Program-made: the position numbers
Part shown: positions 44,001-47,000 of the stretch, piece by piece
How the letters are laid out: the number at the start of each line of letters is the position of its first letter
Numbering within the stretch: position 1 is the stretch's first letter
Source: Escherichia coli
GTDB taxonomy: Bacteria > Pseudomonadota > Gammaproteobacteria > Enterobacterales > Enterobacteriaceae
Length of the DNA stretch: 64,000 nt
NCBI RefSeq assembly: GCF_046105845.1
Contig: NZ_CP151004.1
Direction: 5' to 3' (one strand)

Positions 44001-47000
44001 ACCACCGTCCGCACAGAATTGATTGCGGGGATGACCACTTTTTTAACCATGGTGTACATCGTTTTTGTGAACCCGCAAATCCTCGGCGCGGCACAAATGG
44101 ACCCGAAAGTGGTGTTTGTTACCACCTGTTTGATTGCCGGTATCGGCAGTATTGCGATGGGGATATTTGCTAACTTACCCGTGGCGCTGGCTCCAGCAAT
44201 GGGGCTGAACGCCTTCTTTGCGTTCGTGGTCGTGGGGGCGATGGGTATCTCCTGGCAGACCGGGATGGGCGCGATATTCTGGGGCGCAATTGGGCTATTT
44301 TTGCTCACGCTATTTCGTATCCGGTACTGGATGATCTCCAACATTCCATTAAGTTTACGTATTGGTATCACCAGCGGAATCGGATTATTTATCGCCTTAA
44401 TGGGATTAAAAAATACTGGCGTTATTGTCGCCAATAAAGACACCCTGGTGATGATTGGCGATTTAAGTTCTCACGGCGTGTTGTTAGGTATTTTAGGGTT
44501 TTTTATTATAACCGTGTTGTCATCACGTCATTTTCATGCCGCGGTGCTTGTTTCTATTGTGGTGACGTCTTGCTGTGGCTTATTTTTCGGTGATGTTCAT
44601 TTTAGCGGTGTCTATTCCATTCCGCCTGATATTAGCGGCGTCATTGGTGAAGTAGATTTGAGCGGCGCGTTAACACTTGAACTCGCCGGTATCATTTTCT
44701 CCTTTATGCTGATCAACCTATTTGATTCATCAGGAACATTAATTGGTGTAACTGATAAAGCTGGCTTAATAGATAGTAACGGTCAATTCCCCAATATGAA
44801 TAAGGCGCTGTATGTTGATAGCGTCAGTTCGGTGGCAGGCGCATTTATTGGTACCTCATCTGTTACTGCCTATATTGAAAGTACTTCTGGTGTGGCGGTC
44901 GGTGGTCGCACGGGGCTGACGGCTGTCGTGGTCGGCGTTATGTTCCTGTTAGTTATGTTCTTCTCACCGCTGGTGGCGATGGTTCCTCCTTACGCAACCG
45001 CCGGAGCGTTAATCTTTGTTGGCGTGTTGATGACCTCAAGTCTGGCGCGCGTTAACTGGGATGATTTTACCGAATCGGTGCCTGCGTTTGTTACCACGGT
45101 GATGATGCCCTTTACTTTCTCGATCACCGAAGGGATTGCACTTGGCTTTATGTCGTACTGCATCATGAAAGTGTGCACCGGGCGCTGGCGCGATCTGAAC
45201 CTGTGTGTGGTGGTGGTCGCAGCTCTGTTTGCACTGAAGATTATTCTGGTGGATTAGTAACTGGCGAGGGTTTCCAGATATCATGAGTTCTGATTACGCA
45301 GGAGAACTCATGATCTGGATAATGCTCGCCACGCTGGCGGTGGTGTTTGTGGTTGGTTTTCGGGTGCTGACATCCGGGGCCAGAAAAGCGATTCGCCGTC
45401 TCAGCGATCGGCTGAATATCGATGTCGTACCCGTGGAGTCGATGGTCGATCAAATGGGAAAGTCAGCCGGTGACGAATTTTTACGTTATTTGCATCGCCC
45501 GGATGAGTCGCACCTGCAAAACGCCGCGCAGGTGTTGCTCATCTGGCAAATTGTCATTGTCGATGGTAGCGAACAGAATCTGCTGCAATGGCATCGGATT
45601 TTACAAAAAGCCCGCCTTGCCGCGCCGATTACTGATGCTCAGGTCAGGCTGGCGCTGGGTTTTCTGCGCGAAACCGAACCTGAAATGCAGGATATTAATG
45701 CTTTTCAGATACGCTATAACGCGTTCTTTCAGCCTGCCGAGGGCGTTCACTGGCTGCATTAAAACCGCTTCGTCTTATCAGCCTACAGACCGCGCCTGAC
45801 CTGTAGGGTGGATAAGGCGTTCACGCCGCATCCGGTATCGGAACTGACAGTAGGTGAACGCATTATCTACGTTCTATTTACAGCAGCACCTCCAGCCCGT
45901 GTTTTTGCACAATGCTGAGCAGTTTTAATGAAATGCCATTGGGGCGTTTAGCGCCACTTTCCCATTTTTGTACAGTTGAAACGCTGGTATTGAGATAGTG
46001 AGCGAAGACGGGCTGACTCACTTTTAATTTTTCCCGCAGTGCTTTTATCTCAACAGGTTGTAAGTCTTGCACGCTGGTCAGGCAGGCTTTGTCAAAAGTA
46101 CGCATCGTTTCAGCAGAAATAGCATTGACGCTGGACAATCCAGCCGCTGCGCTGTGAATAGCCTCAAATGCAGGACTTTTAAATTTAGTTTTTGCAGTCA
46201 TAGCAGATCTCTGTCAGTTCTTTAGTGTTAATCATTGCTGTTAGTTGGGCTTTCGTCAGGAAGGCATAATGCTTTGCAATTTCACGAAACCCAGCCAGTT
46301 CCTGACTATTGATGTTCGACATATCCTGTTTTGCATATAAAAACGTGTAAAACCAATTGCTTCCCCCTTTTGCCAGAATAATTGCACGCTCACGATTTTG
46401 GTGAAGGCGCTTTTTAAAAACGCCACCGCCAAGTGCATCAGCTTTACCTTGTTCTGTTTCTAAAATGGCCCGGCACAACTCTTCATCTGTTATTGCATGA
46501 GACCAGGCTTCCCTTGCAAACCATTTGGTTTTAAACACGCGCATATCGTTGAGGTCCTGTTATCAAAGTATATCACCAAGTGCAATACTTTATCCCTTGT
46601 TCCCAACACAATCGCGAAAATACATATCACCTTGCCCTATGATTTTTATTTCTTCGAGCAGCCTCGAACTTTTCCCACAACACCGTAAAAGTTGCAAAAA
46701 CGTTAAATGCGTCACACATTTCAATGTTAAAGTGGTCGGCTTTTCCCCTGAAACATGCCACGGGTAACACCATGAGTGAATTTATTGCCGAAAACCGCGG
46801 CGCGGATGCCATCACCCGACCGAACTGGTCAGCCGTTTTCTCGGTGGCGTTTTGCGTCGCCTGTCTGATTATCGTTGAGTTTTTGCCCGTCAGTTTGTTG
46901 ACGCCAATGGCCCAGGATTTAGGCATTTCGGAAGGGGTTGCCGGGCAATCGGTGACCGTGACCGCCTTTGTGGCAATGTTTGCCAGTTTGTTTATTACCC

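Follow-up and report, generated by a model that had tools for sequence, protein, structure and literature searches.

The window analyzed here, a stretch of 64,000 nucleotides of Escherichia coli DNA, contains two overlapping open reading frames (ORFs) on its minus strand between yicN (45310-45762, plus strand) and nepI (46772-47956, plus strand). The first ORF (46185-46544) runs from an ATG at 46544-46542 to a stop codon at 46187-46185 and encodes a protein of 119 amino acids; the second (45878-46201) encodes a protein of 107 amino acids. We refer to these proteins as the toxin and the antitoxin, after the roles that we predict for them. The two genes overlap by 17 nt (46185-46201, ATGACTGCAAAAACTAA on the minus strand), which is consistent with translational coupling, and the same type of overlap geometry is found in Citrobacter and Dickeya. 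These coordinates, taken from an ORF list, agree with a preliminary description of the locus that had reported two overlapping minus-strand ORFs of these lengths, and the three peptides that it had picked out of the larger protein (GVFKKRL, RERAIILAKGG and WFYTFLYAKQD) are all present in the 119-amino-acid translation. The positions of yicN and nepI follow the RefSeq annotation of the same locus, and the flanking genes adeQ, yicN and nepI were identified from the RefSeq annotation of near-identical E. coli chromosomes. Relative to the adjoining nepI, the module is divergently transcribed. In this window, a variable virulence island (nepI-iatC-eilA/eip) is located two genes away from the module.

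RefSeq names the two products “type II toxin-antitoxin system RelE/ParE family toxin” and “helix-turn-helix domain-containing protein”, and starts the toxin at a GTG two codons downstream of the ATG, giving 117 amino acids. The ATG start is common to nearly all Enterobacterales homologues; in O157:H7 it has changed to ATA, leaving the GTG as the only start available. Both ORFs are real genes and chance ORFs are ruled out, because their products match Pfam families, the toxin gene has the antitoxin gene immediately after it at each of 80 loci in other genomes (fetched from one-genome-per-species contigs), and dN/dS is low.

Upstream of the toxin gene, an inverted-repeat search found an imperfect palindrome on the minus strand at 46567-46589 (AGTATTGCAC-TTG-GTGATATACT, with the core TATTGCAC-N3-GTGATATA), located 23-45 nt ahead of the toxin start codon. 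Of about 50 Enterobacterales loci compared, most, including that of Citrobacter koseri, have a palindrome equally far from the ATG, with the consensus TAGCAC-N3-GTGCTA; the E. coli palindrome departs from this consensus by one mismatch per half-site. Among these loci the palindrome is conserved whatever the chromosomal site of the module, which argues for a function. We consider it a candidate operator by its likeness to the arrangement in Vibrio cholerae, where the -10 box is covered by a single HigA2 operator (TGTACGC-N5-GCGTACA; PMC11006873).

The right arm of the palindrome holds a candidate extended -10 element, TGaTATACT (46567-46575, minus strand), which we read directly from the sequence; the pattern TGnTATA(C/G/T)T is conserved across homologous loci, where it overlaps the palindrome. 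A Shine-Dalgarno-like AGGA (46555-46558, minus strand) follows, 10 nt before the toxin ATG, and ACAGGA is conserved at this position, 3′ of the -10 box, in most loci. A two-hexamer promoter scan and a terminator scan of the locus returned nothing, and the promoter that we propose is drawn from the extended -10 box recognized by eye and from its conservation.

On the other side of the module, a REP-type (BIME-like) element, recognized by its REP consensus, occupies about 45774-45836 between the yicN stop codon and the module. Part of it (45808-45824) can pair with a REP-like arm at 45854-45870, within the strain-variable segment defined below, over 17 nt with 88% complementarity, forming a stem-loop immediately downstream of the antitoxin gene with a predicted RNA folding energy of -37.5 kcal/mol and a z-score of only -1.8. 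The stem-loops at the 3′ end of the module are REP-derived and of modest stability; this one may conceivably serve as a 3′ end or as a stabilizer. A search of Rfam gave only a sub-threshold naRNA4/REP325 match at 45806-45871 and a spurious miRNA match.

The two proteins

The toxin matches the Pfam family PF06296 “RelE” over residues 1-113 (model positions 1-120; 138.6 bits, E 1.5e-40), a family that Pfam describes as “RelE toxin of RelE/RelB”; among NCBIfam models, it matches none. V. cholerae HigB-2, using a sequence checked against PDB 5JA9, falls in PF06296 only peripherally (34 bits, E 3.3e-8), and a 2025 survey of the superfamily also places HigB-2 there and lists PF06296 under ribosome-dependent mRNA degradation (PMC11980606). 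Searches of the PDB by phmmer with the toxin, and with a profile of its family built from 39 sequences, detected no chain at all, HigB2 included, so we made the connection to HigB2 through Pfam, hhalign and fold comparison. With hhalign, the toxin and V. cholerae HigB2 (VcHigB2) align with a probability of only 23%; at the level of sequence, the similarity is remote. The fold comparison used an AlphaFold (AF2) model of the toxin built from 39 homologues (pLDDT 88.7). Searched against the PDB with Foldseek, this model has VcHigB2 at ranks 1-11 throughout, with probability 1.0 and TM scores of 0.5-0.63. The matches that follow are to other RelE/ParE-fold toxins, with ParE structures low in the list.

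Toxin residues K44, R46, R53, Y70 and K72 align with K49, R51, R64, Y82 and K84 of HigB2, albeit in the low-probability hhalign alignment. In HigB2, R51, R64, Y82 and K84 have been shown by mutagenesis to be important, as has K49 (PMC5416850; PMC10098735). The mapping of the putative catalytic residues thus depends in part on an alignment of low confidence, and the BLASTP alignment to ToxP, a toxin from Coxiella, supports the same correspondence. In an alignment of 39 diverse homologues, R46, R53 and K72 are nearly invariant (at least 90% conserved). These observations bear on the target of the toxin. Some proteins with the RelE/ParE fold inhibit gyrase, and ParE does appear among the fold matches, albeit low, so one could imagine a ParE-like gyrase poison, or a toxin with some other non-ribosomal target, in place of an mRNA endonuclease. 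We regard this as extremely improbable: the nearest relatives in sequence and structure, HigB2 and ToxP, are all translation-dependent RNases, the RNase active-site residues are conserved, and the PF06296 family is itself classed with ribosome-dependent mRNA degradation in the 2025 survey.

The antitoxin has a C-terminal XRE-type helix-turn-helix (HTH) and dimerization domain of the HigA-2 type at about residues 46-102, preceded by some 45 residues that are presumed to be the toxin-binding region. Specifically, residues 52-96 match Pfam HTH_3 (E 1.2e-7), and the C-terminal region of MqsA_antitoxin is matched as well. The best PDB match found by phmmer is V. cholerae HigA-2 (E 8e-10). When the toxin and antitoxin were modeled as a fusion through a linker, the C-terminal domain of the antitoxin taken from this model superimposed on HigA2 (5J9I) with a TM score of 0.84, an rmsd of about 1 Å and 40% identity; the same model gives the antitoxin two N-terminal helices, at residues 10-24 and 30-40, with pLDDT above 90.

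Other family models match the antitoxin less well. It scores below the NCBIfam cut-offs for NadS (41.3 versus 60 bits) and for the MqsA family (41 versus 61.8 bits), and far below that for YiaG (model NF007481; E 1e-6, 29 versus 110 bits), in all three cases through the HTH region only. Over its full length it matches the phage protein family phrog_2104 (E 1e-26), to which no function is assigned. The preliminary description had proposed a HigB-2/HigA-like family, and the PF06296 match, the top fold matches to HigB2 and the best PDB match to HigA-2 bear this out. The HMM search that it had suggested as a check places the toxin in the HigB-2 family PF06296 and leaves the antitoxin under the NCBIfam thresholds for NadS, MqsA and YiaG.

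History of the yicN-nepI interval

Alignments of occupied and empty sites define a variable segment of 836 bp (45839-46674) that contains the module. The preliminary description had recommended comparing this interval across strains, and it does vary: of 5426 complete E. coli genomes, 1716 have the module at the yicN-nepI site, whereas the others, those of the K-12 type included, have an empty interval of about 300 bp. In K-12-type genomes there is no gene between yicN and nepI, as the description had suggested; the two ORFs are thus not core genes shared with K-12 at this site. Instead of the variable segment, K-12-type genomes have an unrelated sequence of about 43 bp. Aligned to the module, this filler scores 23, against an average of 17 ± 2.3 and a maximum of 29 for shuffled sequences; it thus does not resemble the module significantly and shows no detectable scar, so the junctions alone do not tell insertion from deletion.

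A REP element does lie next to the module on the yicN side, as the preliminary description stated, but the empty K-12 site has it too, with 72 of 75 bases identical; being common to both kinds of site, it adjoins the variable segment without belonging to it and is not a mark of insertion. In addition, the order nepI-toxin-antitoxin-yicN, in the same orientation, is found in C. koseri and Citrobacter amalonaticus, in Klebsiella indica, K. michiganensis, K. grimontii, K. oxytoca and K. pneumoniae, and in one further Enterobacteriaceae genome; in K. spallanzanii, where the locus is cut at the nepI side, the yicN side alone is seen. Between E. coli and C. koseri, the nucleotide identity of the module (73-77%) is close to that of its flanks (76-79%), and within Escherichia the dS of the module is similar to that of the flanking genes. 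Synteny in Citrobacter and Klebsiella, together with a divergence of the module that matches that of its flanks, favors ancestral presence, which is also the simpler interpretation. We conclude that the module is probably old and vertically inherited, and that it was probably lost in the K-12 lineage and in many other E. coli. The suggestion that it is an accessory insertion, made in the preliminary description, is on these grounds the less likely of the two histories.

The family as a whole is also horizontally mobile. In a neighbor-joining tree, a tight clade with 86-95% amino acid identity spans Pectobacterium, Erwinia, Edwardsiella, Serratia, Dickeya and others, with the module at unrelated sites, and this scattered distribution points to horizontal transfer. 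In the same tree, the C. koseri copy is nearer to this multi-genus clade than to the E. coli copy, and the module at the syntenic site could conceivably have been replaced horizontally.

Both genes are under purifying selection, with dN/dS of about 0.1: between divergent Escherichia lineages, the ratio is 0.10-0.16 for the toxin gene and 0.07-0.12 for the antitoxin gene. Some alleles have nevertheless decayed, and they have done so on the toxin side. Specifically, some E. coli and Shigella-like genomes have a frameshifted toxin gene next to an intact antitoxin gene, the toxin is truncated in several other species, and O157:H7 has the altered start codon described above. Decayed toxins with intact antitoxins fit a gene that is harmful without its partner, and such decay is the usual pattern when a toxin turns dispensable or costly.

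The toxin allele in the window must be viewed in this light. Its residue 14, Lys or Arg in the majority of homologues, is replaced by Trp (R14W), and the exact W14 allele is rare, being found on 11 contigs. The W14 toxin could be attenuated, and its activity may or may not be full. Combined with the frameshifted and truncated toxin genes elsewhere, with the loss of the ATG start in O157:H7, and with a dN/dS of 0.8 between the window and O157 toxins (a ratio that derives from only four differences), this replacement of a mostly basic residue raises a broader alternative in which the module is decaying in this strain: the toxin would be attenuated or inactive, and the HTH protein would be kept as an autoregulator or as some other regulator. 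The toxin ORF is, however, full length and has all five active-site residues, residue 14 is no known catalytic position, and the low dN/dS of the toxin gene holds across Escherichia. We consider decay in this strain unlikely.

Because it stays next to nepI, divergently transcribed, in Escherichia, Citrobacter and Klebsiella, the module may have been domesticated, with its HigA2-like repressor or its toxin activity wired into the control of this purine-nucleoside efflux gene or with the pair serving as an anti-phage abortive-infection switch. If this were true, the loss in K-12 would have a physiological consequence and would not be neutral, but we think such domestication improbable.

Alternatively, the pair might act mainly in anti-phage abortive infection or as a stabilizer of the nepI-iatC-eilA/eip island, as opposed to being a stress-responsive or selfish addiction module. 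Modules of the RelE/ParE superfamily have been discussed as defense toxins (PMC11980606) and the antitoxin resembles a phage protein family (phrog_2104), but PADLOC gives the toxin no match and the antitoxin only generic HTH matches, no phage record has a close copy (the single match is a Salmonella chromosomal contig), and occupation of one chromosomal site over three genera is unlike the typical turnover of defense islands. As for stabilization, the island is only two genes away in the window, and a tblastn search of plasmids finds homologues in 176 records (19 of them Coxiella plasmids), where such modules stabilize replicons; O157, however, carries the module without the island. Overall, we judge a main role in defense or island stabilization very improbable.

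Proposed mechanism and relation to known systems

Taken as a whole, the pair probably forms a chromosomal toxin-antitoxin operon of type II that belongs with HigBA2 and ToxP-AntitoxP, in which the toxin is a predicted ribosome-dependent mRNase. We propose the following mechanism. A single promoter with its extended -10 element at 46567-46575 would transcribe the toxin gene and then the antitoxin gene, from a start predicted to lie near 46560, with the 17-nt overlap coupling their translation. Free toxin, a predicted endoribonuclease with a RelE fold, would enter the ribosomal A site and cleave mRNA under translation using K44, R46, R53, Y70 and K72, stopping protein synthesis. The N-terminal 45 or so residues of the antitoxin would wrap around and neutralize the toxin, and its C-terminal HTH would dimerize and repress the operon by binding the one palindrome that covers the -10 box. 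When the antitoxin, which is presumably labile, is depleted by proteolysis or by a block in synthesis, the toxin would be freed. Toxicity, neutralization, ribosome dependence, operator binding and antitoxin lability are all predictions of this model.

A literature search, including searches by gene neighbors and WP_ accessions, found no experimental study of this E. coli locus; a pair named “Toxin HigB-2 / Antitoxin HigA-2” appears in a published table of accessory genes of E. coli isolates (PMC10304320). We regard the module as genuine but ordinary, belonging to a family that is known and already annotated, and as having little importance beyond the correct annotation of the pair. It does offer an E. 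coli representative of PF06296 for which K-12 is a natural null host, and the conserved TAGCAC-N3-GTGCTA palindrome can be taken directly as a predicted operator. It is also an example of a toxin-antitoxin module that is old and syntenic over three genera, yet polymorphic within E. coli, and a caution that “absent from K-12” should not be read as “inserted”.

Comparison with characterized systems places the module more precisely. RelBE of E. coli K-12 has the same superfamily fold, and an active-site logic of the RelE kind, lacking a His/Glu pair (PMC5416850), is common to RelE and the toxin described here. In contrast to this module, the K-12 relBE operon has the antitoxin gene first, and RelB is a ribbon-helix-helix protein that neutralizes its toxin through its C-terminus, whereas the antitoxin here is an HTH protein. 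Furthermore, the RelE family is PF05016 and not PF06296, and it appears only at the low ranks 23 and 30 in the Foldseek search. Acinetobacter baumannii HigBA2, also considered as a relative, was rejected because its toxin has a GP49 domain.

The “relE-yiaG” bicistronic modules (Gerdes 2025, PMC11980606) are closer in organization, with a PF06296 toxin encoded upstream of a YiaG/HigA2-like HTH antitoxin that carries two N-terminal helices (PMC11980606). The resemblance has limits: the antitoxin here matches YiaG weakly and far under the cut-off, and the subfamily is defined by disordered N-terminal extensions of the toxin, whereas the toxin here starts at a conserved MRVFKTKWF.

V. cholerae HigBA2 (VCA0468/VCA0469; PDB 5JAA, 5JA8 and 8A0X), a superintegron cassette, is the best structural match. 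It too belongs to PF06296 and has the same gene order, and its HigA2 has a disordered or helical N-terminal neutralizing region followed by a C-terminal HTH, a layout predicted for the antitoxin here as well, with HTH domains that are 40% identical. Its single inverted-repeat operator spans the -10 box, a layout like that of the candidate operator in the window. Despite these similarities, VcHigB2 is only about 20% identical to the E. coli toxin, which lacks the long Lys/Gly-rich β2-β3 loop of VcHigB2 and has an extra C-terminal helix and strand. The operators also differ in sequence (TGTACGC-N5-GCGTACA for VcHigA2 versus TAGCAC-N3-GTGCTA here), and the base-contacting VcHigA2 residues R68, E71, N72 and R77 align with S75, Q78, K79 and A84 of the antitoxin, a difference that is expected because the operator sequence differs.

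The closest experimentally tested relative is ToxP/AntitoxP (CBUA0028/CBUA0027) of the Coxiella burnetii plasmid QpH1. Like the E. coli pair, it is a toxin-first operon with overlapping genes. Full-length alignments give 31% identity between ToxP and the toxin here (E 1e-17), with the C-terminal helix-helix-strand extension covered, and 55% identity between AntitoxP and the antitoxin here (E 4e-37), with the N-terminal toxin-binding part likewise covered. The two systems differ in setting, as ToxP/AntitoxP is plasmid-borne in an obligate intracellular species of the Legionellales, whereas the E. coli pair is chromosomal and known from sequence; they differ also in the β2-β3 loop, which in ToxP is longer and basic, with a six-residue insertion relative to the E. 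coli toxin. In experiments, ToxP is toxic and inhibits translation, AntitoxP rescues, and AntitoxP binds both ToxP and the promoter (PMC10098735). ToxP shares the K/R/R/Y/K active-site residues with the toxin here; a ToxP K79E mutant was reported, as data not shown, to be non-toxic (PMC10098735), and in our alignment K79 of ToxP corresponds to K72 of the E. coli toxin.

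Distribution of the module across the Enterobacterales

Outside Escherichia, homologues of the toxin-antitoxin module include a clade (loci L012-L040) with 86-95% protein identity that occupies unrelated chromosomal sites in several Enterobacterales families, with hosts that include Pectobacterium, Erwinia, Edwardsiella, Serratia, Dickeya and Enterobacter sp. This pattern of sequence identity and location suggests recent horizontal spread of the clade. The Escherichia and Klebsiella copies, unlike this clade, are syntenic and more divergent. A single contig of Erwinia mallotivora (NZ_JFHN01000045.1) carries two copies of the module 13 kb apart (L026 and L039), and in one of them ATA replaces the toxin start codon.

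Copies were also recovered from an actinobacterial metagenome-assembled genome, ‘Collinsella sp.’ Map_57_008, where they lie on 1-kb contigs (L009 and L049). Contigs of this bin share 97% identity with the module locus of E. coli, and a further copy in the bin resembles that of Klebsiella pneumoniae, with the same percent identity to the E. coli module of the window and matching upstream sequence. The copies in this bin are almost certainly contamination.

Variation in the toxin among E. coli alleles

Examination of the toxin alleles shows that codon 14 (46503-46505) encodes Trp in the window versus Arg in other E. coli alleles; in the family alignment, most homologues have Lys or Arg at this position. 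A protein identical to the window’s toxin was found on only 11 contigs, and one identical to its antitoxin on at least 1000.

In O157:H7 strain 17B6-2, the ATG start codon of the toxin is changed to ATA (3843-3845 of locus L001, corresponding to window 46542-46544). Because of this change, RefSeq places the O157:H7 toxin start at a GTG two codons downstream, yielding a protein of 117 aa; the ribosome-binding spacing of this GTG is not good. As a result, translation of the toxin may be lower in the O157:H7 lineage. Frameshifted toxin alleles of 95 aa (2501-2788 of loci L089-L091) are found in E. coli and Shigella-like genomes, such as CP026777.1, likewise between yicN and nepI and beside an intact 107-aa antitoxin. 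In one of these genomes, IS1 and a truncated inverse-autotransporter gene adjoin nepI.

Other genes of the window

Two large plus-strand ORFs lie between ilvN and uhpA (33686-34993 and 35209-36705), both annotated by RefSeq in the near-identical strain NY1601 only as hypothetical proteins; neither is known from K-12.

Immediately following nepI is a gene for a 4190-aa inverse autotransporter adhesin (48157-60729, plus strand) made up of many near-identical Ig-like repeats. Past it, on the minus strand (60779-62476 and 62679-63899), are eilA, encoding a HilA-family regulator, and type III secretion translocon/tip genes. The nepI-yicS interval of O157:H7 and K-12 is without this adhesin/eilA/type III secretion island; in strain NY1601, RefSeq names the adhesin gene iatC, and its length there is only 7932 nt.
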